From Spirochaetia bacterium (GTDB lineage: Bacteria; Spirochaetota; Spirochaetia; CADAEX01), in contig JAZURI010000001.1 of assembly GCA_045606105.1 (NCBI GenBank), positions 32,001-96,000 on the forward strand: a stretch of DNA of 64,000 nt. Direction: 5' to 3'. Shown piece after piece: positions 35,497 through 60,134 of the stretch. Position 1 is the stretch's first letter; every line of letters starts with the position of its first letter. Made by a program: the position numbers and the translations under genes. The notes below the pieces were generated by a model. It did no database searches. It was given only the letters and a program-made list of their open reading frames with translations, and was not told the DNA's origin.

Positions 35497-36160
35497 TTAT
35501 TCTTTTTCATTTCCAAATATCCTTTTTTTTGCAATATCGAAGTATTTCTCTTGAATCTCATAACCTATAAACTTGCGATTCAGCACCTTGGCAGCTACAC
35601 CTGTGGTACCACTCCCCATAAAGCAATCCAGGACAACATCGTTTTCTGTTGTACCGTCTTGGATAAGTTTTTTAATAAGGTTGACAGGCTTCTGGGTAGG
35701 ATGGACTTTCTCTCCATCTGTTTTTTTAGCCCCAGAAGAAAACCCAGGAATATCCATAATAACATTACTCCCCCCCCCTCGAAATTTTTGATTTTCCAGT
35801 TGCAAAAATAATAAACTCATGAGCATAGCTATAATAAGAGCCGGGTCCGGCTCCTTTGTCCCAGACTAACAAGTTTTTGATTGTAAGAAACTCATTGATG
35901 ATGGGGTAATAGAACGCATAACCCCGCCAGTCAGTAAAAAAGTAAAAGGAATAATCTGCAGAAAGAACCCTTTTTATTTCTTTCATCAGAGCTTTAAAAA
36001 AATAGGCACTGATATTCAGGTCCGCAAATTCATAGGAACTGCCGTTGTGACTAAGACCTTGGAAGTAAGGAGGGTCTGTAATAATGCAGTTGACGCCGTG
36101 ATCCGGCAGTTTCTTTATTCCTTCGAGGCAATCCGTGTTATAAATTTTTACATTTTCCAT
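35497..36160 (-). pseudogene. Beta-class N4/N6 DNA methyltransferase split by a frameshift at a G9 tract (35770-35778)
   Basis: ORF 35765-36160 has TDPPY; ORF 35497-35826 has HPTQKP and DCFMGSGTT; G8 would join them into 220 aa. Confidence 0.85.
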
Positions 36161-36195: not shown

Positions 36196-36271
36196 AGAAG
36201 TGGAAACCAAGGAAGCGATGTATTCCCGCCTATGGAATATGGAGCTAAACATTATGGTTTCCATTTTTTTT
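36196..36271 (+). ncRNA. Candidate ~75-nt small RNA overlapping the 3' end of MuF-toxin
   Basis: Downstream of the promoter; closing stem AAGTGGAAACCA/TGGTTTCCATTT, inner hairpin TATTCC-N7-GGAATA, ends in T8. Confidence 0.55.
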
Positions 36272-37733
36272 GCTTTATCGTTTGCCGTGAAATATTATAA
36301 ATTTTGTTCTGCCAGTCTAAAATTACTTCTTTAACAGGGGTCATAATAACCCCTTTATACAATCCATTAATAATTTCATCGGAAGTTGTTTCTGGCAAGG
36401 CTTTTATATATACAATTCTTGCATGTTGAGCTCGACCAGCCCGCTGAATATCATTAGCAATAGAAGTTGTTTTAGGGTTTTTCATTTCACCAATTTGGTT
36501 GTCAATTAACATGTCTGGATTCTTAACTTTAAAAAGGTTACCAGCAGGCAGCATATAAACCTTGTGTCCATTATCTGCTAATCTCCTTGCATTATCATAT
36601 TCTATTTTTGCATCTGTAGGTTCTTTTGCTTCATCCCAGTTTGTGGCTAGTTTTATATAGCCCCCTGTTTTTGATGTATAGTCCAATTTATACCCTTTAA
36701 GTATTTCTTTCTGATAATTTTTCATGTCAAGGTCATATGCCTCCTGAAGAACATCTTTCCAGATTCCAAAATCCTCTGCTCTTTTAATCATAGACGGAGT
36801 AAGTTGCCACCAACTTTCTTTTTCTACAGGATTACCACCGAATCCCTCCTGTGGTTTAAATTTGCGGAACCGCTTCATAGGAGGTTCCTCAACAATTACA
36901 TCTTTGGCAACCTGGGAACTATAAATTCCACGGAATGTTGTCCTGCAATTAAAATGATAAGGTGGGTATCCATACCGATCCCAGAAAGGATGGTCTGCAG
37001 GGAGAGCCAACCCATTAGTCTCCTGAAAAAGCTCGTGGCAGATATGGCTCTGGCGGTCATCATTGATAAAGAAAAGCTGTATAGCCACCGGTTTTGTATC
37101 TTCAAACTCGGTGAGCTTGCCGGAAGTATATATGGTGTTCATATTTGTCCGGTAAACAGTCTCCCAATAGCCCGGTCTTATCGGATCAATATTATCGGTG
37201 TCTATGAGATTTTTTAAATCGCTCCAGCTCTCTGAAATTCCTTTGCCTTTCTCCACTGCATCTATAAGCTGCTGCTGCACCTGGTATACATAATCTGCCT
37301 TGGTCTGGTTTGCAACGCAAAAAGCTCTAAACCGCAGCTTTGGTTCAAGCTCTTCCCATTCTTCTTGGGTAACAGGAATTTGACCTCTTAAGAAATCAAG
37401 AGATTTATCAAATACGACTTCATCAACATCTGCAGAGTTGATTTTTTTAGCCGCATGATTCATTCCGAGCAAGAACGCTCCGGCAAAGGTTATTTCTGAA
37501 TCTTCTACCAATTTGTTGTCGGATGCGATATCGATAGAATAGGCTTCTTCTATCTTTTCTTTTGCAGGAGCTTTGCCATCTGGTGAAAGATGCTTTAAAT
37601 AGTTTTTTAACTCTTCTGCAACAGCCTTATAAAAACGTTTTTTTGCAGCGGTGACAAAGTTCTCAAACTCCTGGCTTTTTATGACTTCCTCTGCAAAGCT
37701 TGTGTCGCTTAAGAGAAGTTCAGAGCTTTTTTT
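36252..37733 (-). CDS. MuF (gp30) minor head protein with C-terminal PD-(D/E)xK CdiA_C-like nuclease; no canonical start in the first 74 codons
   Basis: ETVYRTN, DDRQS..C, HPFW...PP.HFNCR (MuF); KNPDMLID...GEMKNP (nuclease); frame open from 37733. Confidence 0.85.
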   Translation of the reverse strand, partial: KKSSELLLSDTSFAEEVIKSQEFENFVTAAKKRFYKAVAEELKNYLKHLSPDGKAPAKEKIEEAYSIDIASDNKLVEDSEITFAGAFLLGMNHAAKKINSADVDEVVFDKSLDFLRGQIPVTQEEWEELEPKLRFRAFCVANQTKADYVYQVQQQLIDAVEKGKGISESWSDLKNLIDTDNIDPIRPGYWETVYRTNMNTIYTSGKLTEFEDTKPVAIQLFFINDDRQSHICHELFQETNGLALPADHPFWDRYGYPPYHFNCRTTFRGIYSSQVAKDVIVEEPPMKRFRKFKPQEGFGGNPVEKESWWQLTPSMIKRAEDFGIWKDVLQEAYDLDMKNYQKEILKGYKLDYTSKTGGYIKLATNWDEAKEPTDAKIEYDNARRLADNGHKVYMLPAGNLFKVKNPDMLIDNQIGEMKNPKTTSIANDIQRAGRAQHARIVYIKALPETTSDEIINGLYKGVIMTPVKEVILDWQNKIYNISRQTIKQKKWKP

Positions 37734-38929
37734 TTACCAGAATCAGAAAGCATAAAACCCTGGGGCTGTGTCTCTTTCTTGAAAGTGTCATCATCATCGG
37801 CAGGCTGTGGCAATCCGTAGTCTGTATAAAGGGCCTGCTTGGACACAGGAACACCTCTGTCTATTGCCTGCATAAGCTGGTCAAAGCTGGCCTTCTTCTC
37901 GACATTGAACTCAAACTTTGGAGCTATGACATCGGGGCCAAAGTTAAGCTCTACAGTCCAGTCAATTACATGCTGGAGGACGTTCTGCAGCTCCAGGGCA
38001 ATTCCCTTGCAGTCCTCATATAAAAGATCTGCCTGGACTTCTCCCAGGGCAAGGCTGCCGCCGTCTGTCTTGCTGGTGGCAATAGCCTGGCCAGTCAGAC
38101 CGTAACAGATTTGTGTGTCGCAGGCGTCGACCAGGGAAGCAAATCCAATAAGATCTCCTGCCATCCCGACTTCCTTGACATCCCGGATATTTGCCACAGC
38201 TGATGCGGAGCCGGACTCCACACCCAGCAGCATGCGGGCTATATCGTCGGCGCGTTTCTGGATTGAATTCTCATCTCCGTCTGCCTCGAACAGAGCGATG
38301 ATTGATTTGACGCTAAACTTCTCGGTGGCCTGGAGCCAGAACTCGTAGCCGGCCTGCTTGAACATCCATGCCCAGTACACGCAGCGGAGGACAGATGTAC
38401 CATAAGGGTTCTCGTCGTCCGGGTCGTGCTGGAAACGGAGCCACTTATAGTCCTCGTCCAGCTTCTTGCGGTCGCCTATGCCGCCCCAGAAAAGTTCCCA
38501 GTCCGCATTGAAGTAAAAGCGGTCAGGTTTCCTGGTGATGATATTCTCCGGTATCCACTTGCCGGAATTTAAAGCCGGATCTGCCCAGACAAGTTCAGAG
38601 ATGGAAAAACCGTAGTCGAGGGCTGCGAGCATTCTTTTCTCTTTTTTGTACATGTTTTGGAACAGGGGGATATTCCTGATAAAATCATATACTTTGTCAG
38701 GGCAATCTTCCGGCTGATTTATAGCGTGTGGGAAATTGAGGGCAGTGGTCTTGAGCTTGTTCAGGAGAGATTTGATCCTACCGTCTGTCCTCATCTTGCG
38801 GTAGGTCTCGTATGACTCGACAGTTCCCGAGACTATGTCATCAGGGTTTGGCATATAGTTGAGGAAAGACCCCAGCTTGTTGTCGTTTATGACCTGGCTG
38901 GTCATTGTTTTTTTGTCCGCTTTTTTCAT
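37709..38929 (-). CDS. Portal protein, Mu gp29/DUF935-like
   Basis: D.RIKSLL, ALDYGFS..E.VW, NPYG.S.LR..YW.W.FK, GQ, SLALGEVQ. Confidence 0.88.
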   Translation of the reverse strand: MKKADKKTMTSQVINDNKLGSFLNYMPNPDDIVSGTVESYETYRKMRTDGRIKSLLNKLKTTALNFPHAINQPEDCPDKVYDFIRNIPLFQNMYKKEKRMLAALDYGFSISELVWADPALNSGKWIPENIITRKPDRFYFNADWELFWGGIGDRKKLDEDYKWLRFQHDPDDENPYGTSVLRCVYWAWMFKQAGYEFWLQATEKFSVKSIIALFEADGDENSIQKRADDIARMLLGVESGSASAVANIRDVKEVGMAGDLIGFASLVDACDTQICYGLTGQAIATSKTDGGSLALGEVQADLLYEDCKGIALELQNVLQHVIDWTVELNFGPDVIAPKFEFNVEKKASFDQLMQAIDRGVPVSKQALYTDYGLPQPADDDDTFKKETQPQGFMLSDSGKKKALNFS

Positions 38930-40479
38930 ATTCTCGCTCTCCTGATAATATTCTTTGACTTAGGATGATGGTGGTGCCGGCTTACTGCGACTGTACCGGT
39001 ACCGGCTTTTTCGGCTGCCTTGATTGCCAGCCACAAGCCGTCACACAGGTCATCGTATGCGCCCAGCGGAAATTCTGTAAGCTGGGTCTCTATATTGCTG
39101 GTTCCTTTCTCGGGGAACCGTACAAAGCCGTTCTGTATAAGCATGGAGTAGGACCTGATGCGCATCTCCTTTGATGCGCCGCCGGTACCTACTTTTATAA
39201 TAGGAAGATAAACGCTCCGCTCTATGCCCAGCTTCTGGATATAATTGCCATAGATTCCAGAGAACGCCACATCCTCCCATGCTATTGCGCCGAACCGGTA
39301 AGCCCGGTGCAGCATTATCATCTGATCCACAGTCCTCTGCTCGCTGCAGGCTTCTCCGAAACAAGGCAGCACATAGATGATGCCGGTTTCTTTGTCCCTG
39401 GCAATAGGCACCTCTGCAGTACCGTCGTGCTTGCCTGTCGCAGGGTCGACACCCAGGAAGAACCGCAGGTTCCCTTTGGGTGGCAGGCTGCTGTAACGGT
39501 TGGCATCAATCCATTCCTGTTGGATGATACGCTCCTCATCGGCCAGCGGCTCGTTCATATATTCTGTGCTGAACGCTGCGACACCGATGGTCTTCTTTTT
39601 CTCCTCAAGGGATTCCAGATCCCAGTATTCCGGCCACAGTGGTGTGCCGTCTGGGCGTATACATCCCAGGCGCACGGCAATCCACTTGACCAGGGTACCA
39701 GCCTCCAGCTCACGGCAGAGCCTGGATATAGGGTCGTCGTTGTGGAATATGGTGTTGACCCAGATGATGAATGCTTTCTTGCCCAGATTGAATACAACCC
39801 GTTTAAGCCATCGGTATATCTTGTTCCTCTGGGTAGGTGAGTTTACAGCATCATCCTTCAGAAGGTCGTCTGCTACAATCAGATCAGGGCGGTACTGGCG
39901 GTATCTGGTACCTCGCATGGAGGCACCGGAACCTTTAGACTGCAGGCAGGTGCCGTTTGCAAGCTCAAGCCTCTTGTTGGTCCATACTTTTCCCTGGAGC
40001 TGTCCGAAGTCCTCTGCAAGGCGCTCGTTCTCCTCCAGCTCAAGCTTGATATTGTTAAGGTTCTCGCTGGCAGCGTCACCGCTTGCGCCTATAAGAAGCA
40101 CATATCTTGCGCGGCCGGTCAGGACACACCACAGCACATAAGCAAATGACCAGCGGACTGTCTTACCATGCTCTCTCGGCTCGATGAACATGGCTCCTGA
40201 TATCTTTGTGGTTGCCCGGAGCAGCGGCCAGTATTTCTCCCGGACAAAATATCTCAGGTGCTGGGCGTTAGCTGCAGAGAGGCTGCGGCTGTTGGCCACA
40301 TCATATAGCACCTGCTGGTATTCCGCAGGATCCTCAAAGAAGTAGTCTGATAAATAATACTGGCAGAAAAAGCCGAAGTCCTTGGCCGCTTTCTCTTTGC
40401 GCCGCGCAGCTTCAGAGGCTTTTTCAATATCGTTAAAACTGCCATTTAACAGCTCGGCTAATGCCGATTTATCAGCCAT
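38926..40479 (-). CDS. Terminase large subunit
   Basis: PREHGKT, RPDLIVADD, LWPE, F.TEYMNEP, GVDPA, DDLCDG. Confidence 0.92.
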   Translation of the reverse strand: MADKSALAELLNGSFNDIEKASEAARRKEKAAKDFGFFCQYYLSDYFFEDPAEYQQVLYDVANSRSLSAANAQHLRYFVREKYWPLLRATTKISGAMFIEPREHGKTVRWSFAYVLWCVLTGRARYVLLIGASGDAASENLNNIKLELEENERLAEDFGQLQGKVWTNKRLELANGTCLQSKGSGASMRGTRYRQYRPDLIVADDLLKDDAVNSPTQRNKIYRWLKRVVFNLGKKAFIIWVNTIFHNDDPISRLCRELEAGTLVKWIAVRLGCIRPDGTPLWPEYWDLESLEEKKKTIGVAAFSTEYMNEPLADEERIIQQEWIDANRYSSLPPKGNLRFFLGVDPATGKHDGTAEVPIARDKETGIIYVLPCFGEACSEQRTVDQMIMLHRAYRFGAIAWEDVAFSGIYGNYIQKLGIERSVYLPIIKVGTGGASKEMRIRSYSMLIQNGFVRFPEKGTSNIETQLTEFPLGAYDDLCDGLWLAIKAAEKAGTGTVAVSRHHHHPKSKNIIRRARI

Positions 40480-41002
40480 TCTCTTCCTTCGCCCTCATGT
40501 TCTTGACAATCTCTAGAATGGTCTTGAGCACGTCAGGATGCTGGTCTTTCAGCTCCTTGTTGAGCTCGGCTATGAAGTCTGCCTTTGCGGACTCATAGCC
40601 CTTGTTATATTTAAGCCGCTCTGCGGCAAGCTTGGTCTGCGATGTGGCAACCGCTGTAACCAGCTTCGAGATATCGCTGACCGATTTGAGTTCTATGCCG
40701 TCGATGTTCTTGATCTCCGACAGGAACTTGGTGGCGATTACGGCATTGATGGCCTCGATGACCTCGGTGCCGGGATTGTTCTTGATAGCTTCGGTAATGG
40801 CCTTGGCCTCTTCGTAGGCCAGGTTGTAATCTTTGGCAGCCTCTGCAGCGGTCTTGACAGTCCTCCGCACCGCCTCCCTGGATATATCTATGCCGTCCTG
40901 TCTGAGGATGGCCTCAATCTGTTTGCATGTGGTTCCTTTCTTGTAGAGCCTGGTTATGCGCTCGACAAGCCCCAGCAGTTCTGCTTTTGACTTTCTACCC
41001 AT
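40472..41002 (-). CDS. Mu gp27/DUF3486-like terminase small subunit
   Basis: MGRKSK start, HTH-like ISREAVRR, directly upstream of terL. Confidence 0.78.
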   Translation of the reverse strand: MGRKSKAELLGLVERITRLYKKGTTCKQIEAILRQDGIDISREAVRRTVKTAAEAAKDYNLAYEEAKAITEAIKNNPGTEVIEAINAVIATKFLSEIKNIDGIELKSVSDISKLVTAVATSQTKLAAERLKYNKGYESAKADFIAELNKELKDQHPDVLKTILEIVKNMRAKEENG

Positions 41003-43795: not shown

Positions 43796-44308
43796 TTAAG
43801 CCGTCTTAGCCTTCAGCAGCTCTGCATTGACCTCTTCCTTTTTTGCTTCGCAGAAGAAGTCGTCCTTCACCCGGCGGGCTGCATCCACATTCCGCAGCTG
43901 CTCGTCGTCAAGCTCCGCCATGAGGTCCTTGTTAGGCTCTTCTTTGATCCTGATGTACTTCTCCATGCCCAGCTTATGGAGCAGCTCCACGCAGGTCTTC
44001 TTGCAGGTGATTGATGTGCTCTTGCGGAATCCGAAGATGCCGGAGCTGAGCTCCACGGTCTTCTTGTCCTTGAACAGCTCATCCCTGTTGTACTGAGCAA
44101 ATGCACCGATCATGCTGGAGAGCTCTGCTATGCGTTTACGTTTCTCCTCGCCATCGGCAGCTGCTTTTGCCCGGATGTCTGCAATTCTCTTGTCAGCTGC
44201 CATGTCAATCTTGGCCAGCTCCTTCTCAAGAGTTCCAATCTCCATGAGTGTGGCATCCACATCCTCAAGGCTGGTGAGCTTCTTAAGCTCTGGTTTGATC
44301 CTTGCCAT
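43796..44308 (-). CDS. Mu Gam-like host-nuclease inhibitor
   Basis: KKTVELSSG.FGFR, YIRIKEEPNK, DDFF.E. Confidence 0.82.
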   Translation of the reverse strand: MARIKPELKKLTSLEDVDATLMEIGTLEKELAKIDMAADKRIADIRAKAAADGEEKRKRIAELSSMIGAFAQYNRDELFKDKKTVELSSGIFGFRKSTSITCKKTCVELLHKLGMEKYIRIKEEPNKDLMAELDDEQLRNVDAARRVKDDFFCEAKKEEVNAELLKAKTA

Positions 44309-44545: not shown

Positions 44546-45203
44546 TATCTTCCTCCTTGTTCTGGTCTTTCTCTACATGGCTGTAGTATTTCTCAATCGC
44601 TTTCTGCATATCCTTGCGCATATTCTCATAGCTGAGCTTGAGAGCAGGGTTCTCTGGAGATGTTATAAAGATATCCACAACCTTGACCGGAACATCTTCG
44701 CCCCGCCGTACAAGCCAGAATGATGACTCGTTGTCATTGATGGACTCAAGCCGGTAGTTGTCAAGCTCCACCTTTGCAAGGGGTGACTTCTTGAACGATT
44801 CTTCCCAGGGAAACGCCACCTGTTCCTCGGCAGCCCCGAGGTTGTAGTGCTTGTGTTCTGTAAGGGCCTGCTGCTCCTTGTTGCATGAAGCGATAGCCTT
44901 GAGAGCTTCGGACACGGTAAGCCCCTGGATTGCCTCCGGATTCGCCCGGAAATGATGGTATATTTTTATGCTGTTGGCGGCATGGCGTTCCGGGATATTG
45001 AGCAGCTGGTAAAAGTCTTTAAGCTTATAACCGTGGGGGGCTTCGTTCCACAGCTCTTCAAGCTTTCTTCCTGCCTCGAAATACAGCTCGACGGCGCTCA
45101 TTATGGCCTCGTGGGCTCTGCCCGTGCATTCCTCCACCTGTGCATACAGGGCAAGGAGCTCCTCCCTGGGGCTTTTTGCCACTTCGTTCTTTCCTTTTTT
45201 CAT
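44538..45203 (-). CDS. Hypothetical phage protein (DUF3102-like N-terminus)
   Basis: ATGA overlap with B; EAG..L...IPER.A. Confidence 0.55.
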   Translation of the reverse strand: MKKGKNEVAKSPREELLALYAQVEECTGRAHEAIMSAVELYFEAGRKLEELWNEAPHGYKLKDFYQLLNIPERHAANSIKIYHHFRANPEAIQGLTVSEALKAIASCNKEQQALTEHKHYNLGAAEEQVAFPWEESFKKSPLAKVELDNYRLESINDNESSFWLVRRGEDVPVKVVDIFITSPENPALKLSYENMRKDMQKAIEKYYSHVEKDQNKEEDNA

Positions 45204-46111
45204 CTGAAGTTCCTCCTTATCACTTTGCTGGCCGCTATCTCGATGATGTCCGGGTCCGGCTCGGTAAGCTTGTTGAGCAGCATTGCGCTCTGGGTCCGCT
45301 CGATTATCCTGGTGAACTGCCGGACATCTGTCCTGGCCACGGAGTAGACCGCATCGAAGCAGTCTTTGTCAAAACTAGGCCATACCGAACGCATGATTGT
45401 CTCGGCATCCTTCTTGGAAAGACCTCCCAGTGGCAGATATACACCTATGCGGCTCTCCAGCTGCCGATGATCTTCCTTCAGATTCTGGATTATATTCTTG
45501 AGTCTGGGCAGGCCTATAAGAACCAGCCCCGACTGCCCCAGGTCATAGACAAGGCGGCGGGTAAACTCAAGCGCATCCGAGCGCAGATAATCTGCCTCGT
45601 CCAGAATGACAACCATGTCCCTGTCATGCAGCGCATCGGCTGTGTTCTTGACCAGAGTCTGGAACTGCACCCTGGCGGTGTCCAAACCAAGCCGGCGGGC
45701 TATCTCCTGAACCATCATCTTCTTGTTCATTCCGGCCACCACCTCGATCAGGATTGTGCTCCGCTCGTTCTCCCTGGCATACCATTTGGCTGCGGTGGAT
45801 TTACCGCTTCCGGCATCGGCCACAATCAAAGCAATATCCTTCTCGGCATGTGCCATTGAAATGGCGTTGACTATGCGGCGCAGGTCGTCAGTCTCCACCA
45901 CGGGGACAGTCTTTCTGGAATGCGCCTGTTCAAGCCTAGCCAGCCATTTGACTATGGCTTCCTCCAGCTTGGTCACATCACCGGCATAGGTGCCGGCCCT
46001 GTAGGAGCTGAGTGCAGCTCCTGAATAGTTCATGTCCTTGGCCGCCCGGTTCTGGCTGATTCTGTACCGGGCCATCGCATCATTAAGCTTTTGCTTTATC
46101 TGCTCGTTCAT
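45200..46111 (-). CDS. MuB-like AAA+ transposition ATPase
   Basis: N-terminal HTH, Walker A DAGSGKS, Walker B ILDEAD, QLESR. Confidence 0.9.
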   Translation of the reverse strand: MNEQIKQKLNDAMARYRISQNRAAKDMNYSGAALSSYRAGTYAGDVTKLEEAIVKWLARLEQAHSRKTVPVVETDDLRRIVNAISMAHAEKDIALIVADAGSGKSTAAKWYARENERSTILIEVVAGMNKKMMVQEIARRLGLDTARVQFQTLVKNTADALHDRDMVVILDEADYLRSDALEFTRRLVYDLGQSGLVLIGLPRLKNIIQNLKEDHRQLESRIGVYLPLGGLSKKDAETIMRSVWPSFDKDCFDAVYSVARTDVRQFTRIIERTQSAMLLNKLTEPDPDIIEIAASKVIRRNFR

Positions 46112-46247
46112 TTTTACTCTCTCTTTTCGGCACAATTATCTCTGCTATCTTGGCGGCAGTTACATTCAACGCCTTCTTTATATATCTCTTGCTTCTGAGT
46201 TTCTTCCTCAGTTCCTCAATTTCCTGCTCTGTTAAACATTCAGTCAT
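46083..46247 (-). CDS. Small basic hypothetical protein
   Basis: ATG overlaps the lipase stop; fills the gap to B. Confidence 0.45.
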   Translation of the reverse strand: MTECLTEQEIEELRKKLRSKRYIKKALNVTAAKIAEIIVPKRESKNERADKAKA

Positions 46248-46851
46248 ACAGTTCTCCCTTGCCATATCCTATGTGGTATTTTTTCACCTTGAAGATCTCA
46301 ATCAGGCTGAAGCGCCTGCCAACCCAGTGGCTGTTCACATGACAGAATCCGGGCAGAGGCGGAGTGTATGGCACAATATCGTTCGGCTGCCGATACTGGA
46401 CAGCACAGCAGCACTGGACTATGTACTCTGCGGTCTTCTTGGAACCACACACCTTAGGAGCTCCGAATGTGAACACATCGGCCTTCCGTCCGGTTCTCCA
46501 GAACAGATCCTCCGCAGCCAGAAGCGCTATTGCGCCGCCCAGGCTCCAGCCCGCAATTATAGGCTTGGCATCAGGATGCTTAAGACATTCCTGGATTATG
46601 TCATGGATCACCTGGTCGTTTCCGGACTTCCACAGCATGCCAAAACCGCCGTGGACAACCATGCAGGAAGTCTGGTTCTTATACAGCTTCCGGGCAAACC
46701 GGAAGTCATTCCAATAGTCCCGCCAGCTCATGCTACCTTGGAAGAGCAGGGCGGGCCGACCCCCGATCTCTGTCACGCAGTAGTCAAGATCAGCTCCAAC
46801 AGTCTTATAATCTGCGTGTTTTATAAGGCTGAAGAGTTCGTTCTGTCTCAT
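46240..46851 (-). CDS. Class 3 lipase-like alpha/beta hydrolase
   Basis: FQGS, VHGGF, GWSLGG nucleophile, TFGAPKV, DIVP, C-terminal H. Confidence 0.85.
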   Translation of the reverse strand: MRQNELFSLIKHADYKTVGADLDYCVTEIGGRPALLFQGSMSWRDYWNDFRFARKLYKNQTSCMVVHGGFGMLWKSGNDQVIHDIIQECLKHPDAKPIIAGWSLGGAIALLAAEDLFWRTGRKADVFTFGAPKVCGSKKTAEYIVQCCCAVQYRQPNDIVPYTPPLPGFCHVNSHWVGRRFSLIEIFKVKKYHIGYGKGELYD

Positions 46852-48776
46852 TGTTCCTCCTTGTCATCATCCTGCAGATTGAGGTAATCGCTATCCCTCC
46901 TGTCGTACAGGTCGATATATTTATTCTTTGTCTTTTTTCTTGCCGGCTTCGGAAGCTGCTCCGATTCCGGCTTCTTATCCAGGAGGCCAAGCTCCTGGTC
47001 AACTTCAATAACATCGCCCTGGTGATAGATTCCGCCCGCCACATCGGCAAGGGTCTGGAATCCCTCCGGTGCGGCCACTTCGGGCAGGCCACGCTCGGCC
47101 ACAGCCACAAGCCCCTGTTGTCTTGCACCGGTAAGCCTCCGGATGCTTTCCTTGAAGTCGCTTCCTTCCAGGAAGAAGTTCCCCCGGGCATTGCATATAT
47201 GCTCGCCCTTGAGAGTGCTTACCGACACCTCGTCGTCGCTAATCAGGCTGGTGTATACACGCACCTCGGTGCCCACATACATCTGCAGGTCAGGGTGCCA
47301 GTAGTTCACGCCGCCAACCTTGACACCGTTCCGGCCGCACTTGCGGATCTCGCCTGTGCATAATGCTGCCGCCAGGGTCTCCTTGCTGACCCTGCGAACC
47401 TGTGAAGGGTCATAGTTCTCCTGGAACACCTGGCTTCTGGTCTTTCCCTCCATGCCCTTGCCCTGGCTCTCGAATCTGTCGTTGATATAGAGGACCATCT
47501 TATTAGCGAACGCTAGGAACTCATCCCAGGAGGGGATATCGTCTCTTTTAGCCTTTCCATCAATGGAGCGGAACATAAGCTGCGCATCCTCCGGCTGGGT
47601 GCGTGTGTCACTTCCCAGGTAGGTACCGAAATCCTTGGCCAGGTATTCGGCCAGGATACGGAAATAGCGCTCCTGCCTGCCTTTTGACTTGCCATTATAT
47701 GTCCGGGTGAAGTGCACCTCGCTTCCTACAATGTTGAAAATGCCTGAGAAGCGCACCTCGGTTTCCTCGCTCATTCCCTCCGGGGTCATAGTCCTGGCGG
47801 TGGTGGTCCAGCCGTTGAGGATCTTCGATCGGTAGTCCTTGCCGTTGTCAAAAAGCAGCTCCCTGGGCACTCCGTACTGCAACACAGCCATGTAGTAGGC
47901 CACAATGATGGAGAGGCTCGACGGCCGGACACTGAAGCACCAGCCTAAAACCTTGCCGCTCCGGTAGTCCTGCATGGTGGTGATCCACGGCCGCACCAGC
48001 TTGCCGTGGTACATGCACACGCAGTCCAGGACATGGTGATCGGAAACCACCCGGTCCATCGACTTGTAGGCCTCCACGTTCTGTTCCATATAGGGCAGGT
48101 ATCTGTTCTCGAACTGGCTGTCGCCCAGCCGGTACTTGTCCCTTATAGCGGGCGGTATCGACTTGAGGAACCGCGCAGCCGTGGAATATGTGCACCGGCT
48201 GTAGGGCACGTTGGCCTTCATAAGCCTGAGCGCATGGCTCATGGTGGGCTGAGAGGTCTGCAGCCAGAATTTGGCCAGCAGATTCTTCTCGGTCTCCGTC
48301 AGCTGCTCTCCTGCGCCGCCCCGGCTTATGCCGTAGCGCGGTGTCACGCCGCTGGCCCCGTTTGCGGTCCAGTCGCGCAGCCATCTGTAGAAAGTGGCCA
48401 GCGACACCTCGCCCAGCTTGCTGTAGATCACTTTTTCTATCTGCTGGCTGTTGTAGGCTTCCACAAAGTCCTGCTTCCTCATGCCGCTGTGGCGGAATGA
48501 TAGCAGCAGGGCGCTCCGCCATGTGGCGGTCTCCCTGGACTTGTCGCTCGCAGCCATGTAAGCCTGTCCGGCCAGGACAGCGCCGCCCTCGCGCTCCTTG
48601 TTCTGCCTTGCGGCGAGCATGAAGCGGATGTCCATGGGCAGCCGGTTCTCCACAAACTGGAGCCCGCCGGATCTCTCGACGCAGGGCCAGCCCTCTTTCC
48701 GCGCCCTCTCAAGCACAGACTTGCGGGTTATGCCCAGCACGTCGGCCAGCTCTCTGGTTCTGACATAATCACTCAT
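46848..48776 (-). CDS. MuA-like DDE transposase
   Basis: N-terminal HTH, VSDHH, FDNGKDY, KGRQERYF, Mu-like C-terminal domain. Confidence 0.92.
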   Translation of the reverse strand: MSDYVRTRELADVLGITRKSVLERARKEGWPCVERSGGLQFVENRLPMDIRFMLAARQNKEREGGAVLAGQAYMAASDKSRETATWRSALLLSFRHSGMRKQDFVEAYNSQQIEKVIYSKLGEVSLATFYRWLRDWTANGASGVTPRYGISRGGAGEQLTETEKNLLAKFWLQTSQPTMSHALRLMKANVPYSRCTYSTAARFLKSIPPAIRDKYRLGDSQFENRYLPYMEQNVEAYKSMDRVVSDHHVLDCVCMYHGKLVRPWITTMQDYRSGKVLGWCFSVRPSSLSIIVAYYMAVLQYGVPRELLFDNGKDYRSKILNGWTTTARTMTPEGMSEETEVRFSGIFNIVGSEVHFTRTYNGKSKGRQERYFRILAEYLAKDFGTYLGSDTRTQPEDAQLMFRSIDGKAKRDDIPSWDEFLAFANKMVLYINDRFESQGKGMEGKTRSQVFQENYDPSQVRRVSKETLAAALCTGEIRKCGRNGVKVGGVNYWHPDLQMYVGTEVRVYTSLISDDEVSVSTLKGEHICNARGNFFLEGSDFKESIRRLTGARQQGLVAVAERGLPEVAAPEGFQTLADVAGGIYHQGDVIEVDQELGLLDKKPESEQLPKPARKKTKNKYIDLYDRRDSDYLNLQDDDKEEQ

Positions 48777-51900: not shown

Positions 51901-52788
51901 ATGAAAACAAGAAAACGTGAAATTGCTAAGGCGGGGATCTTCGGTTCTGTCGAGAACCCTGTCATCGTCCTGGAGAGCGACCTCAAGGAGATCGCCGAGA
52001 CTTTCCCGGAGATAGGCAAGGCACCCATCCAGCTGGGACACTGGCCGGATGCGGAGCAGCCGAGGCTGGGCAATGTCGTGGGCGTGACCTATGACGAGGC
52101 CACCAAGACTCTCTATGGCGAGATCGAGGAGGAGGATGCGCTGGCGCAGGCTGTCGAGGACGGCTACTACCCTGACGTCTCCATCGGCGCCAAGTCAAGG
52201 GCCACCGACGGCAAGATGTACCTGCACCACCTTGCATACCTGGGAGAGGAGGCTCCGGCAATCAAGGATCTCAAGGACGAGATCAAGACAAGCCTGGGCA
52301 TCGCGGCCTGTGACAAGACCGGCGTGCGTATGCTTCCTGGAACAATGGAGAAAAGGCTCTATCTTTCTGACGAGCCTAAAAAAACTGATCCCCCGGGAGA
52401 GGGCGGAAAGGAGAATAACGTGGACGACAAGCAGAAGGTCGCAGAGCTCGAGGCTGAGAACCAGAAGCTCAAGGAACAGAACCAGGCCCAGGAGAAGATG
52501 CTCTCCGACGCCATGAAGGTTCGGAAGGAAGAGGAGAAGGCTGCGCTCAAAAAGGCAGTCGAGGGCAAGCTCACAGAAGCTCAGACACAGAAGCTCATGG
52601 CACTGGCTGACAGCTGCGAGGGCGGCAGAACCATCGAGCTCGCGGACGGCGAGTCCAAGAGACAGGTTGGCCCTATCAGCATTCTTGCGGAGGTTTTCGA
52701 GGACATCCCCCTCAAGGTGAAACCTGGCAAGCTGGACCTTTCAGACGGCGAACAGCAGCCGGCTGAAATCAATTTCAACGCTATTTAA
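51901..52788 (+). CDS. Mu I-like capsid maturation protease/scaffold
   Basis: APIQLGH, Y.DVS, L.HLA.LG...PAIK.L; coiled-coil C-terminus. Confidence 0.82.
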   Translation: MKTRKREIAKAGIFGSVENPVIVLESDLKEIAETFPEIGKAPIQLGHWPDAEQPRLGNVVGVTYDEATKTLYGEIEEEDALAQAVEDGYYPDVSIGAKSRATDGKMYLHHLAYLGEEAPAIKDLKDEIKTSLGIAACDKTGVRMLPGTMEKRLYLSDEPKKTDPPGEGGKENNVDDKQKVAELEAENQKLKEQNQAQEKMLSDAMKVRKEEEKAALKKAVEGKLTEAQTQKLMALADSCEGGRTIELADGESKRQVGPISILAEVFEDIPLKVKPGKLDLSDGEQQPAEINFNAI

Positions 52789-53405: not shown

Positions 53406-54389
53406 ATGCCAGATTTCAATTTCAAGAATTATCTGAACCCGCAGGCACTGACAGGCACTCTTAACAAGATGCCCCCACTGCACACAGTTATCATGGACCT
53501 GATCTATCCAGAGTCCGCCCAGGTCAATCATCCGTTTGACACAATCGGATACGAGGATCTGGCTGCCACCATCAAGAACATCCCTCTGGTGACCAGGGGC
53601 GGACAGTCCTATGCACTGTCTCTTGATGACAACAAGCTGAAGTATATCGACCCGGCCAACCTGAACCCGAGCTACTTCGTGAAGTCTGCTGACCTCAACA
53701 GACTCAGAAATATGCCGGCCCAGTCTGTCCAGGCATATATCAATGCACGGATCGACCGGCTCCGCAGAGCCATCAGAAAATCCAAGGAAGCTATGGCAGC
53801 ACAGTCCCTGACCGGTAAGATCTCCTACGACCTTGAGACCGCCAACGGCGGAATCGTCAAGTATGAGGTGAACTTCGGATCCATCCTGACCCAGACTATC
53901 TCAACCAAGTGGGACGCACAGGCTGCGACACCTGGCAAGATGGTTGCAGACATCGGCAAGATGCTGGGTAAGATCGGCGAGAAGTCCGACGCCACAAAGT
54001 TCGTGGCAATCTGTGACTTCGCCACATTCGGCGTGATCACAGACCTCTGCGGACAGGCAAAGAGCACTCTGCCTATTACTGTCGGCCTTGACAAGATCAA
54101 GATCGGTCAGCTGGAGATTGTGCCTGTTGCCGGTTCTTACTATGACTACTCCTCAGGAGCCAACGTTCCTGTAGTTGAAGCCAAGAAGTTCAAGATCATC
54201 GGTGTTGACGGAGGCTTCCGCTTCTTCAACTGCGCGCTCGACTCCGAGGACGCAAGCTTCGCAGGTATCCCATTCGGTATCCGCGAGGTCAAGAAGGATG
54301 ATCCTGAGGGAAGAAAGCTCATCGCAATGTCACGGCCAATGCCTGTACCAGATGTCAACGCCATCTGCGAGGCAACCGTACTCAGCTGA
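53406..54389 (+). CDS. Major capsid protein (lambda E-like)
   Basis: 327 aa, PLV.RG, E.MAAQ.LTG.I, DPEG....SRP.P. Confidence 0.82.
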   Translation: MPDFNFKNYLNPQALTGTLNKMPPLHTVIMDLIYPESAQVNHPFDTIGYEDLAATIKNIPLVTRGGQSYALSLDDNKLKYIDPANLNPSYFVKSADLNRLRNMPAQSVQAYINARIDRLRRAIRKSKEAMAAQSLTGKISYDLETANGGIVKYEVNFGSILTQTISTKWDAQAATPGKMVADIGKMLGKIGEKSDATKFVAICDFATFGVITDLCGQAKSTLPITVGLDKIKIGQLEIVPVAGSYYDYSSGANVPVVEAKKFKIIGVDGGFRFFNCALDSEDASFAGIPFGIREVKKDDPEGRKLIAMSRPMPVPDVNAICEATVLS

Positions 54390-57148: not shown

Positions 57149-57483
57149 GAATCGGGCTCCGGGTTTACCTGTCCGGTAAACACGAGGCCCGGATGATGAA
57201 AGGCAGGGAGAACCTGCTGTGGCCGACCGGGGTGAAGGACGAGAATGGCAAGATGATTGCCATCCCAACGTCGGCGGCCAAAGATTATGTGAACGAGGAT
57301 TTCAGGACTGCGTACAGGATGTACCTGACCACCGAGACCCTCGGATGCCTCCCCTTCGGGGGCGGCTGGGCGGAGCAGCCCGATTGGGTTGTAACCGCGC
57401 TCACAGCTTTCAAGACCGAGATGGCCCTGTGGCGCGAGGAAGAGAGCGTTAGAAAAGAGAGATACCGGAAGATGAGGCGGTAA
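57145..57483 (+). CDS. Tail chaperone -1 frameshift extension (T-like)
   Basis: -1 frame open from the slip site through ORF 57193-57483; LP..GGW.EQP.W motif. Confidence 0.7.
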   Translation: MRIGLRVYLSGKHEARMMKGRENLLWPTGVKDENGKMIAIPTSAAKDYVNEDFRTAYRMYLTTETLGCLPFGGGWAEQPDWVVTALTAFKTEMALWREEESVRKERYRKMRR

Positions 57484-60134
57484 TGGCAGACAAGACACTA
57501 CAGCTTATAATACAGATGCAGGCCCAGGATGCCATAAGGCAGCTGTCCACGATGTCCGACGAGATCAAGACTCTCTCTGACGCCCTGGGCGACAACTCGG
57601 GCGTCTCAAAGGAGCTCGAGGGAACATTCTCCGCCCTGGAGGACGGTGCAAGCCGGCTCCGGGCAGAGCTCCAGCTTTTCGGACGCGCCGATGAGGGTGT
57701 GGCCCGCCAGCAGCAGCTGACACGGGAGGCCATGATTGACTTGGTGTCCAAGGGCGTGGACCCCCAGAGCGAGGCAGTCCAAAAACTTAAAGCACAGTAT
57801 GATCAGCTGGGCACCTCCACGAAGAAGACCGAGGGCTTCATGTCAAGCATGGCCGGACAGTTCATGACTGGCCAGTTTGCCTATACGATGGCTATAAAAG
57901 CCCTCAAAGGCTTCATCAGCCTGGTCAAGGAGTCAGCTGAACTTTACCGGCAGCAGGAGAAAGTGGAGAAAGAGCTTTCCGCTGCCGTGTCAATGAACCC
58001 GATGTACCAGCCCGGCACAGCTGCGCGGCTCAAGGCGTTCGCCGGAGCGCTGCAGGATGTGACTGTCCACGGCGACGAGACCACCATGTCCCTGATGAAG
58101 ACTCTGGTGGCAACAGGGCGTACAGAAGAAGAAGTAAAGAAGATAATCCAGACCGCCGCGAACTTGGACGCTGCCGGCATAATGAGCTATGACTCAGCTG
58201 TTCAGGCGCTGAACATGAGCTACTCCGGCATGACCCTTACCCTGGGCCGGCAGTTCAGCGAGCTCAAGAAGCTGAGCAAGGAGGAGCTGGAGGCTGGAAA
58301 GGCTGTCGACATTCTCGCCGAGAAGGTCAAGGGGTACTCCGAGATGGCAGCCTCAACCGGCGAGGGTTCCATCAAGCAGCTCAAGAATGCCATGGGCGAC
58401 CTCAAGGAGGAGATCGGCTACGGATGGGAAGCTGTATGGGCACCGCACCGGAACGAGTTAACCAAGACTATCAAAAAGTGGACCGACCTTCTGAAGGAGG
58501 CCCGCGAATATACCAAATATAAGAAGCTCAATATCTCCGAGGAGACTCAGACTCTTGAGTCCCTGCAGGGGCAGCGCAACCAGGAGCTTGTGATACTGCA
58601 GCGCTACCGCGATGCTTATGGCAACGGCAACGACCCGGTCGGCAAGCAGCTCATTGCGGACCAGGAGAAGAAGATTTCCGAGCTCAATGCCCTGGTCAAT
58701 AAAGTCCTTTATGCGGAGGACTACGAGTACCAGACAAGGCTGGCAGAGCAGGCTGCAGCAGACAGGGCGCAGACCGAAGCCGACCAGGCTGCGAAGGAAG
58801 CCAAGCAGGCCGAGGATCTGGCAAAGAAGGCCGAGGAAGAGCACCAGGAATGGATTGAGTCAACTTATTCCAGGACAGCCCAGGGACAGCTTGAGGCCAA
58901 GGAGGCCGAGTTCCGGCGTGCCCTTGAGGATCTCGACAAGGCTGCCCCCGGCACCGAGGCTTACAAGAAGGCCATGGCCAACAAGAACCTGCTGGCCGAA
59001 GAGCTCATGGAGCTGCGCGAGATGGGCGGCTCTGCCCTGCAGACTGTGGACACAGTCTCCGGCTATACCTTCGAGCAGATAAACGAGCAGATCCAGAAAG
59101 AACGGGACCAGATCAAGAAGGATCAGGAAGACTATGACAACTGGTTCGCCGAATTATATTCAAGAACAGCACGGGGGCGGCTGGAGGCCAAGGAAGCCGA
59201 GTTCCAGAAAGTGCTGACCGCCCTGGATGCCACCGAGTTTGGCACCGAGGAATACAACCGGTGGCTGGCCATCAAGAACATGATGGCAGAAGACATAATG
59301 GAGCTGCGCGAGAAGGTCGGAGCCGACGCCGGCCCGACTTATGCGCGCACATACAAGCAGGTTATGGATGAAATGACAAGCTACAGCGAGGTATTCAACC
59401 AGATGCTGTACGAGAGCCTGCGCAATATCACCGACATGAGCGAGGAGACCGCTGCTGTGGTCACCAACATGCTCGGCAACATTGCAGACGAAGGATTCAA
59501 CCGGGTCATCGAGGCTTCCAAGGCATTCGGTGCTGCAATGGAGGACGGCAAACTGTCGGCCTCCGAGTTCCAGGAGATTCTGGCAAGACAGGCCGAGGCA
59601 ATTCTGGACATGCTGCCTACCCTGTTCCTTCAGGCCGGTCTCCAGCTCATAGCCAACGGCCAGTGGCCGCTTGGTCTCGGGTTCATGGCAGCGGCCGGGT
59701 CGACGGCCATAATATCCGGCTATGTTTCTTCCAGACGGGGCGAGACAAGATCCGCACGCGGCAATGTGTTCGAGGACGGCCAGCTTGTACGGTTCGCACG
59801 TGGCGGGGTGGCTACTACTCCGCAACATTTCATGCTTGGCGACGGCAGGACTGCAGAATGGGCAGAAGCCGGCCCCGAGGCGATCATGCCTCTGAAGCGG
59901 CTTTCAGACGGCACCTTGGGTGTCCATGCTGAAGGCGGCAGCGAGACTAAAGTTAATATCGTGATCAACAACCTCACCGGCGAAGTGGTAGAGACCAAGG
60001 AGACCACCGGTGCAGACGGCAGCCGTGAGCTTGAGATTACCATAGGAAAGTTCCTGAAGCAGGCCGCTTCCGACGGCACTCTGGACAGCCCTCTAAGCAG
60101 CCGTTACGGCATCAGACCTAAAGGAGTGAGATGA
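57483..60134 (+). CDS. Tape measure protein
   Basis: 883 aa helical; C-terminal ARGNVF, FARGG, EAGPEAIMPL. Confidence 0.9.
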   Translation: MADKTLQLIIQMQAQDAIRQLSTMSDEIKTLSDALGDNSGVSKELEGTFSALEDGASRLRAELQLFGRADEGVARQQQLTREAMIDLVSKGVDPQSEAVQKLKAQYDQLGTSTKKTEGFMSSMAGQFMTGQFAYTMAIKALKGFISLVKESAELYRQQEKVEKELSAAVSMNPMYQPGTAARLKAFAGALQDVTVHGDETTMSLMKTLVATGRTEEEVKKIIQTAANLDAAGIMSYDSAVQALNMSYSGMTLTLGRQFSELKKLSKEELEAGKAVDILAEKVKGYSEMAASTGEGSIKQLKNAMGDLKEEIGYGWEAVWAPHRNELTKTIKKWTDLLKEAREYTKYKKLNISEETQTLESLQGQRNQELVILQRYRDAYGNGNDPVGKQLIADQEKKISELNALVNKVLYAEDYEYQTRLAEQAAADRAQTEADQAAKEAKQAEDLAKKAEEEHQEWIESTYSRTAQGQLEAKEAEFRRALEDLDKAAPGTEAYKKAMANKNLLAEELMELREMGGSALQTVDTVSGYTFEQINEQIQKERDQIKKDQEDYDNWFAELYSRTARGRLEAKEAEFQKVLTALDATEFGTEEYNRWLAIKNMMAEDIMELREKVGADAGPTYARTYKQVMDEMTSYSEVFNQMLYESLRNITDMSEETAAVVTNMLGNIADEGFNRVIEASKAFGAAMEDGKLSASEFQEILARQAEAILDMLPTLFLQAGLQLIANGQWPLGLGFMAAAGSTAIISGYVSSRRGETRSARGNVFEDGQLVRFARGGVATTPQHFMLGDGRTAEWAEAGPEAIMPLKRLSDGTLGVHAEGGSETKVNIVINNLTGEVVETKETTGADGSRELEITIGKFLKQAASDGTLDSPLSSRYGIRPKGVR

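Follow-up and report, generated by a model that had tools for sequence, protein, structure and literature searches.

A conserved homopolymer run at the portal/MuF junction of Mu-like prophages points to a recoded portal-MuF fusion

The 64,000-nucleotide stretch of Spirochaetia bacterium DNA analyzed here (contig JAZURI010000001.1; the window throughout this text) carries a Mu-like prophage in which the gene for the portal protein overlaps the reading frame of a MuF-type minor head protein, both on the minus strand. The portal gene, at positions 37709-38929, encodes 406 amino acids of the Mu gp29 type; the assignment follows from its open reading frame (ORF), its translation, and matches to the Pfam family PF06074 Portal_Mu (E value of 3.4e-56, 191.5 bits against a cutoff of 23.9, covering portal residues 40-373) and to PHROG 113, portal protein (E value of 1.6e-57). 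The MuF open frame extends over 36252-37733, with 493 codons and a stop at 36252-36254, and matches PHROG 220, annotated as "minor head protein and DNA pilot" (E value of 4.2e-25). The window does not hold a plain in-frame fusion gene: no single ORF runs across both domains, the MuF frame is the portal frame -1, and a -1 shift is required to read from one into the other. Comparison of this junction with its relatives leads us to regard it as probable that programmed recoding at the RNA level in this transposable prophage yields a minority portal-MuF fusion of about 892 amino acids.

At the center of the junction lies a homopolymer of nine A residues (T9 on the plus strand) at 37727-37735, the proposed slip site. 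It follows a GGT codon and is read in the portal frame as AAA-AAA-AAA, which provides the KKK of a portal tail ending in FMLSDSGKKKALNFS (GKKKALNFS, then the stop). The portal-frame stop, a TAA at 37709-37711, lies 15 nucleotides past the run, after the five sense codons GCT CTG AAC TTC TCT. Another TAA, at 37734-37736, arises in the -1 frame where the T of GGT meets the first two A's of the run; it blocks any upstream entry to the MuF frame, which opens 2 nucleotides inside the run, at 37733. The site thus looks like a slippage site, with an A9 run at the junction of overlapping ORFs and the downstream frame opening within it. A -1 shift, or the addition of one A, is predicted to join 401 portal residues to 491 residues of the MuF frame through the junction GKKKSSELLLSDTSFAEEVIK.

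The first 74 codons of the MuF frame (37512-37733, beginning KKSSELLLSDTSFAEEVIKSQEFENFVTAAKKRF) hold no ATG, GTG, or TTG, and they align to homologues. The earliest such codon is a TTG at 37511, codon 74 from the opening; the 20 nucleotides upstream of this TTG contain no purine-rich Shine-Dalgarno motif, and the window sequence shows no such motif at the junction and no Shine-Dalgarno-like element ahead of the run. In the protein collection, the gene call for this MuF begins later still, at MNHAAKK (P0003, 403 amino acids). An earlier reading of these letters, made without database searches (the sequence-only reading), had already proposed the A9 run as the route by which MuF is produced fused to the portal. 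Its description of the run, the five codons to the stop, the 74 start-less codons, and the TTG at 37511 without a Shine-Dalgarno motif agrees throughout with the sequence, the ORF list, and the translations, as do its predicted 401 + 491 product and junction peptide. It expected related prophages to share an A run with the same -1 offset, and among the findings that it named as speaking against it were reads showing A10 and homologues with a conserved independent start.

A short hydrophobic-(S/A)-D-(S/T) motif is present in two copies at 37700-37760: the portal frame has FMLSDS just ahead of the run, and the MuF frame has LLLSDTS just behind it. Relatives carry versions of the post-run motif (FLADSD, FFFADS, and FFSEE at the junctions of L007, L012, L057, L059, L071, and L076), and the motif may serve as a protease site or belong to the portal tail.

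Finding relatives of the junction needed a profile search, as single-protein locus searches with the MuF frame came back empty for genome and viral contigs alike. The profile, built from MuF homologues (alignment A1), brought in 80 genome-contig loci and 79 viral-contig loci, being the best 80 of 112 and the best 80 of 114 confirmed stretches; these were selected by MuF homology, and many are interrelated. With the window included, 160 loci were compared, and 146 of them have a portal gene directly before MuF. Removal of identical junctions left 125 distinct contexts, 118 of which have the -1 arrangement and are open at the run. Most loci come from metagenome-assembled genomes of Treponema or Treponemataceae, and a few are labeled Nitrospirota, Nitrospinota, "archaeon," or others.

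Every one of the 146 portal-plus-MuF loci has an A or T run of at least 7 at the junction, across portal identities to the window of 29% to 69%, and in 139 of them MuF lies in the portal frame -1. The runs in these 139 are A9 (85 loci), A10 (19), T9 (18), T7 (13), T8 (2), and T10 (2), and nine or more identical bases are present in 104 of the 118 unique -1 loci. The comparison that the sequence-only reading had called for therefore comes out as it expected, with the homopolymer kept at every junction and the offset kept at nearly all. As the 19 A10 loci retain the -1 offset, that offset is not a fused gene with a miscounted run; two complete single-contig genomes (G311 and G079) likewise combine A10 with the -1 arrangement. 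The zero-frame stop in relatives falls from -1 to 52 nucleotides past the run.

Depending on the clade, the run codes for Lys-Lys-Lys or for Phe-Phe(-Phe), and a portal tree of 117 rows, built with FastTree only, has a minimum of four switches between A and T. These interchanges of KKK with FF or FFF imply that the homopolymer itself is conserved and selected, not the peptide, and we rejected selection on a KKK peptide for this reason.

Three loci are natural in-frame fusions of portal and MuF, with A10 (L019 and L111) or A11 (L103) at the joint. Two of these have close neighbors in the -1 arrangement that carry one A fewer: the fused A11 locus L103 lies beside L104 with A10, and the fused A10 locus L019 lies beside L036 with A9. 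The third, L111 (A10), falls closest to the window (A9) on the tree, a placement that is weakly supported (81). Natural fused relatives, among them P0123-P0125, are 738-968 amino acids long, and the joint in the natural in-frame relatives (...S/D-KKK-S/N/R...) is the joint of the predicted slip product. Together with the comparative result and the lack of a conserved start described below, these fusions that differ by a single A support the central proposal of MuF production as a portal fusion by way of A9.

Among 61 host-genome relatives, 4 matched and none closely; within the order, only 1 of 20 genomes matched, namely the host's own. In the class, 2 of 401 sampled genomes matched at an E value of 1e-100 or better, a sample that does not include the multi-copy T. 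phagedenis genome. Among deposited phages, 68 records match the portal, all at less than 60% identity and the best at 28%. Four Mu-like phages that we inspected have a separate portal of 472-510 amino acids and a separately initiated F gene.

Across the 118 unique -1 loci, the first ATG, GTG, or TTG comes a median of 50 codons after the run (interquartile range, 31.5 to 70) and within 10 codons in only 5. Similarity to the MuF of the window sets in earlier, at a median of 10 codons past the run, and in 96 of the 118 its beginning lies at least 10 codons upstream of the first start codon. The starts chosen by gene callers fall in differing alignment columns and, mapped to the DNA of the nearest loci, coincide with non-start codons. 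The relative found in public runs X2 and X4 (described below), about 4% diverged, bears on how the stretch evolves: 12 of its start-less codons are changed, 6 synonymously and 6 in ways we judged conservative in the MuF frame. Read in the two alternative frames, the differences are synonymous in just 1 of 12 and 2 of 13 codons. None of the three substitutions around the portal stop alters the MuF-frame protein; for the portal frame, they replace Ser with Cys and TAA with TGA. As the codon changes fit the MuF frame and neither of the other two, the start-less stretch is evolving as coding sequence, with no conserved means of initiation. A search of 95 start-less residues against 1.84 billion representatives gave two matches, one a MuF fragment and the other a repetitive coiled-coil protein that we judged spurious.

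The run itself is confirmed by independent contigs. We aligned Logan contigs from four public runs (X1-X4), drawn from four studies, to positions 37300-38200. The X1, X2, and X4 contigs span the run with zero gaps despite 6 to 28 substitutions relative to the window; the X3 contig begins at 37793, short of the run. The three spanning contigs come from three studies and contain no indel in the run, so the A10 that the sequence-only reading had flagged is absent at the level of consensus, a level that reports the majority run length and hides minority lengths. An artifact or decay would explain the junction as a misassembled fused gene or as a frameshifted pseudogene in a dead prophage. Homopolymers are indeed error-prone and in-frame fusions do exist, but the same offset recurs in 139 of 146 loci, in many assemblies from two collections, and three contigs from three studies agree with the window; on these grounds assembly error was rejected. 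A pseudogene was rejected as well, with the downstream frame intact for 493 codons and under constraint, and with a prophage that keeps its transposase, terminase, protease, capsid, and tail genes. We consider either form of this explanation barely credible.

The same three contigs match the portal and the first ~54 to 62 codons of the MuF frame and then continue into unlike sequence, with loose ends at 37546 and 37571. A recombination boundary seems to lie inside "MuF," such that the start-less linker travels with the portal.

Runs of this length are unusual in the host's genes. The window's genome (1.465 megabases [Mb]) contains 52 A/T runs of at least 9, of which 11, each exactly 9 long, lie within ORFs of at least 120 amino acids. 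The ratio of coding to noncoding A/T-run density, with such ORFs picked greedily and not taken from annotation, is 0.38 for runs of 6, 0.25 for 7, 0.10 for 8, 0.02 for 9, and 0 for 10. Because this ratio drops steadily with length, it is clear that the host genome avoids A/T runs of 9 or more in coding sequence. By arithmetic, 8.1 such runs per coding megabase give an expectation of about 0.002 in the last 240 nucleotides of any one given gene. Most of the 11 coding A9/T9 runs have an ORF end no more than a few dozen bases away. Examples are found in the window at 10905-13 (C1:42905 of the window's genome, G000) and elsewhere in the genome at C2:76456, C2:176701, C2:190220, C3:169168, and C11:134040, and some of them may be further slippage sites or mis-called starts.

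Several observations weigh against RNA-level recoding as a complete account of these junctions. Four of the 146 loci do not fit the -1 scheme: L038 (A10) and L054 (T10) have MuF at +1, L046 has it at +1 and closed at the run, and L064 has it in frame with a stop. The homologues P0071, P0023-26, P0036, and P0044, seen as proteins only, begin with Met just past the junction, and part of the MuF family may initiate independently. Run length varies in the DNA of near-identical prophages (A10, A11, and an implied A9), and a heritable switch may contribute. Finally, 15 loci carry T7 or T8 only, short for efficient polymerase slippage, and all of them are in the X-XXY-YYZ phase.

The Met-initiated homologues bear on the explanation that MuF is self-initiated at a noncanonical or internal start, with the run kept for a Lys-rich portal tail or for the -1-frame TAA. 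Gene callers do choose internal Met or TTG codons, as with MNHAAKK in the window; P0071 and the P0023 group begin with Met right past the junction, and in L084 an ATG lies 3 codons past the run, overlapping the portal stop. Against this, there is no conserved start position, the first canonical start comes a median of 50 codons past the run, a conserved and constrained N-terminal stretch lies upstream of those starts, the window junction lacks a Shine-Dalgarno motif, and the interchange of KKK and FFF defeats any peptide-level reason for the run. A conserved independent MuF start, the second finding that the sequence-only reading had named, was therefore rejected, with starts scattered across the alignment and homology extending upstream of them. 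We regard self-initiation as very improbable.

Variation in the DNA raises a different idea, in which the run is a contingency tract and replication slippage heritably toggles a prophage from separate genes at A9 to a fused gene at A10 and back, so that only fused copies make MuF. Near-identical T. phagedenis-type sequences are found with A10 in the -1 arrangement (L104), with A11 and fused (L103), and with an implied A9 (P0021, a RefSeq protein of 504 amino acids, in which A9 lets the MuF frame extend upstream through the run as far as a TTG six codons ahead of it). Among the 15 members listed of the 30-member P0021 cluster are 416-amino-acid portals ending in KKKIQNSRSPVKIF, MuF calls of 332-414 amino acids from an internal Met, and three fused proteins of 896-901 amino acids; in RefSeq, the 416-amino-acid portals and the 896- to 901-amino-acid fusions are listed on contigs of the same length class, 3.77 Mb. 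T. denticola has a portal of 413 amino acids, MuF calls of 424 and 426, and a fusion of 902, and the RefSeq fusions of 896-902 amino acids in T. phagedenis and T. denticola have KKK at the joint. In the window, moreover, the neighboring methyltransferase gene is split at a G9 tract. These states are very unequal, however: of the 146 loci, 139 have MuF at -1, while 3 are fused and another 3 have it at +1, a distribution that argues for selection of the -1 state and against constitutive fusion, not for free switching. The three independent contigs of the window's close relatives keep one run length, and the length differences of the T. phagedenis type may reflect true replication slippage or homopolymer sequencing error. 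A contingency tract as the sole source of MuF is, in our view, unlikely.

Across cultured Treponema (T. phagedenis, T. denticola, and T. putidum; P0021, P0128-P0141, and P0146), the RefSeq calls are of three sorts: separate portals of 413 or 416 amino acids, MuF calls of 332-426 amino acids cut short at an internal Met, and fusions of 896-902 amino acids.

Within recoding, two routes lead to the same product, and we slightly favor transcriptional slippage over -1 ribosomal frameshifting. A shift that is solely ribosomal would proceed by -1 programmed frameshifting or poly-A sliding at A-AAA-AAA or U-UUU-UUU, with the polymerase uninvolved. The ingredients are present: GGT AAA AAA AAA in the window holds an in-phase X-XXY-YYZ heptamer, A-AAA-AAA; a zero-frame stop comes close behind the site; and all 15 loci with T7 (13) or T8 (2) runs, which by the tree have about three independent origins, are in the heptamer-permissive phase. 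The ribosome could also slide on poly-A lysine tracts. According to passages in Sharma et al. (2014, PMC4066793), A_AAA_AAA is a proven -1 motif in an insertion sequence cluster.

The same passages report that AAAAAAA and UUUUUUU are underrepresented in all frames, possibly as a result of transcriptional slippage. Polymerase slippage gains favor because 104 of the 118 unique -1 loci keep at least 9 identical bases although a heptamer is enough for a ribosome, because A and T runs interchange, and because the host avoids coding runs of 9 or more; selection against A/T runs is evident from nine nucleotides upward in a large share of the genomes analyzed, according to passages in Baranov et al. 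(2005, PMC1088944). It is also favored because no stable structure follows the run. When the 60 nucleotides starting 3 nucleotides past the run were folded and compared with mononucleotide shuffles at 60 distinct loci, a test of structures other than pseudoknots, the mean z came to -0.06, with controls at 0.01 and 0.08 (Mann-Whitney p of 0.43), and there was no downstream stem-loop signal of the kind a ribosomal shift might use. A Shine-Dalgarno-like element, another possible aid to the ribosome, does not precede the window's run. Lastly, the +1 position of MuF in L038 and L054 is out of reach of a -1 ribosomal shift and could be bridged only by insertions or deletions in the RNA. We give an exclusively ribosomal mechanism a substantial chance, one that falls short of even.

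Downstream of the start-less stretch, the MuF frame encodes two recognizable domains. Residues 151-267 (36933-37283, minus strand) form a Phage_Mu_F domain of the SPP1 gp7 type (Pfam PF04233, E value of 7.2e-11), which scores 43.3 bits against a cutoff of 29.6 and lies in a gene directly after the portal. Residues 330-493 (36255-36746, minus strand) are supported as a CdiA-CT-like nuclease domain of the PD-(D/E)XK fold by an AlphaFold2 model and its comparison by Foldseek. The model, made from 50 aligned sequences, has a mean predicted local distance difference test score of 85.7 and a predicted template modeling (TM) score of 0.82. The sole significant match in the PDB is the CdiA-CT toxin 4g6v_A (E value of 2e-5, probability of 1.00, TM scores of 0.53/0.64), which we take to be a tRNase of the PD-(D/E)XK fold; lesser matches, all weak, are to Hjc resolvases and other PD-(D/E)XK enzymes. 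A Pfam CdiA_C match at residues 404-457 is below threshold (E value of 2e-4, 21.9 bits against a cutoff of 26.6). The PD-(D/E)XK motif, P-D407...D411...E416-x-K418 (codons at 36480-36515), is conserved, with D407 and K418 invariant and D411 nearly so in alignment A1.

The sequence-only reading had called this domain a toxin. The nuclease fold and the conserved motif agree with that label, but the immunity gene that would normally accompany a toxin was not found: in the window, only 91 nucleotides separate the MuF stop from the methyltransferase gene, and 15 relatives with the same C terminus have no conserved small ORF downstream of MuF. Loci with other C-terminal types often have a small ORF of 52-110 amino acids that overlaps or lies within ~26 nucleotides of the MuF stop (offsets of -4 to -26 nucleotides), the usual toxin-immunity layout; they include L078, L080, L085, L168, L058, L155, L077, L081, and L169.

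Taken together, these data support a model in which standard decoding would give the 406-amino-acid portal, terminating five codons past A9, and in a minority of events the frame would move to -1 inside the run. RNA polymerase could add one untemplated A, turning A9 into A10 in the mRNA, or the ribosome could slip back one base on A-AAA-AAA. By either route the product would consist of portal residues 1-401, KKK, the linker, the SPP1 gp7-type MuF domain, and the PD-(D/E)XK nuclease. Since no start codon specific to MuF is conserved in this lineage, the slip rate would set the ratio of MuF to portal and, as the sequence-only reading supposed, might set the toxin dose of the virion. Portal structures place the C termini of portal subunits toward the capsid interior, and a fusion made at low frequency would for that reason both dose MuF and locate it within the prohead, on the interior side of a few of the twelve portal subunits. 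The head protease encoded nearby could then release it; the Mu portal protein is itself processed at its C terminus. We infer each of these steps, namely that slippage occurs, at what level, that the fusion enters proheads, and that MuF is later released.

The surrounding genes are those of a Mu-like prophage that occupies 33909-64000 in two divergent arms, with early genes, terminase, portal, and MuF on the minus strand and, from 49816, a plus-strand arm of repressor, protease, capsid, and tail genes. Reading along the minus-strand arm, transposase A (46848-48776) and transposition protein B (45200-46135) are followed by Gam (43796-44308) and a gp27-like gene (40472-41002), after which come terminase, portal, MuF, and two methyltransferase genes. 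The large terminase subunit (38926-40479, minus strand; PHROG 38, E value of 1.1e-89) has a stop that overlaps the portal start (ATGA). On the plus strand, the arm starts with the repressor from 49816 and continues with the head protease (51901-52788), the major head protein (53406-54389), and the tape measure gene (57483-60134), together with tail genes. Passages on phage KS10 (PMC2628397) describe a similar layout, in which the capsid genes lie apart from those for morphogenesis, portal, and terminase. Because the prophage looks complete, the recoding site appears to belong to a plausibly active phage.

The N6/N4 DNA methyltransferase region after MuF (35497-36160, minus strand) is split into ORFs of 131 and 109 amino acids, in different frames, at a G9 run at 35770-35778, and an intact homologue of 226 amino acids follows MuF in Treponema sp. 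HNW (L017). The split gene looks like a phase-variable or frameshifted one.

If programmed recoding does operate here, it would add a new conserved site among phage head genes and a simple genetic answer to the problem of dosing a low-copy, portal-bound protein and targeting it to the capsid. It would also bear on the route by which MuF-linked toxins or nucleases enter the virion, and it would offer a natural template for tethering substoichiometric cargo to the portal. For annotation, the internal MuF starts chosen by gene callers would mean the loss of about 50 to 90 conserved residues. More tentatively, and as an idea that we would sooner doubt than rely on, the homopolymer might be a rheostat open to evolutionary tuning, in which the base (A or T) and the length (7 to 11) determine how many of the twelve portal subunits carry the MuF nuclease. 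The tether would guarantee packaging, the head protease would free the nuclease for injection with the DNA, and changes in the DNA (A9, A10, A11) would form a heritable second layer. If that were true, MuF would never be free in this lineage, and a whole clade of "minor head proteins" would be misannotated with truncated N termini.

In full-text literature we found no description of portal/MuF recoding; supplementary tables, such as GeneTack clusters, might list one. The word "portal" is absent from the main text of Antonov et al. (2013, PMC3711429) and from the first 300,000 of the 449,034 characters of Atkins et al. (2016, PMC5009743), and neither "frameshift" nor "slippage" appears in the main text of the paper on MuF polymorphic toxins (PMC5576092). 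The MuF polymorphic toxins and SPP1 gp7 described there share the gene order seen here, with muf directly after the portal gene and a MuF domain followed by a variable, toxin-type C-terminal domain. Unlike those systems, the window has no immunity gene that we could find after its nuclease domain, and membership in the toxin subclass is unproven. Portal and MuF-like functions also occur in one polypeptide in Microbacterium phages of subclusters EA3, EA5, and EA8 and cluster EB, according to passages in PMC7302621, but those are plain single ORFs that put MuF on every portal subunit, whereas here portal alone would be the default product.

For the proposed slip itself, the nearest parallels lie outside phage heads. 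Shigella flexneri mxiE, as covered in parts of Baranov et al., consists of two overlapping ORFs (mxiEa and mxiEb) joined by one untemplated base at a T run, and its longer product depends on the slip; mxiE encodes a transcription activator on a virulence plasmid, whereas the portal-MuF case concerns virion proteins of two well-known families and is known from sequence alone. The dnaX gene of Thermus thermophilus, treated in the same parts (PMC1088944), has an A9 run on the sense strand, mRNAs in three frames, and two products in a set ratio; its slipped product is the shorter one, while slippage at portal-MuF would give the longer. A further parallel comes from tail chaperones of the lambda gpG/gpGT type, for which Xu et al. 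(2004) is cited; these have a conserved site of programmed -1 frameshifting in a morphogenesis operon, overlapping ORFs, and a minor protein extended at its C terminus. Those sites serve tail-chaperone genes and usually consist of heteropolymeric heptamers, not a homopolymer of 9 or 10 bases. Programmed recoding that gives rise to a minor, extended virion protein is thus known already, and the portal-MuF site would be a new instance of it.

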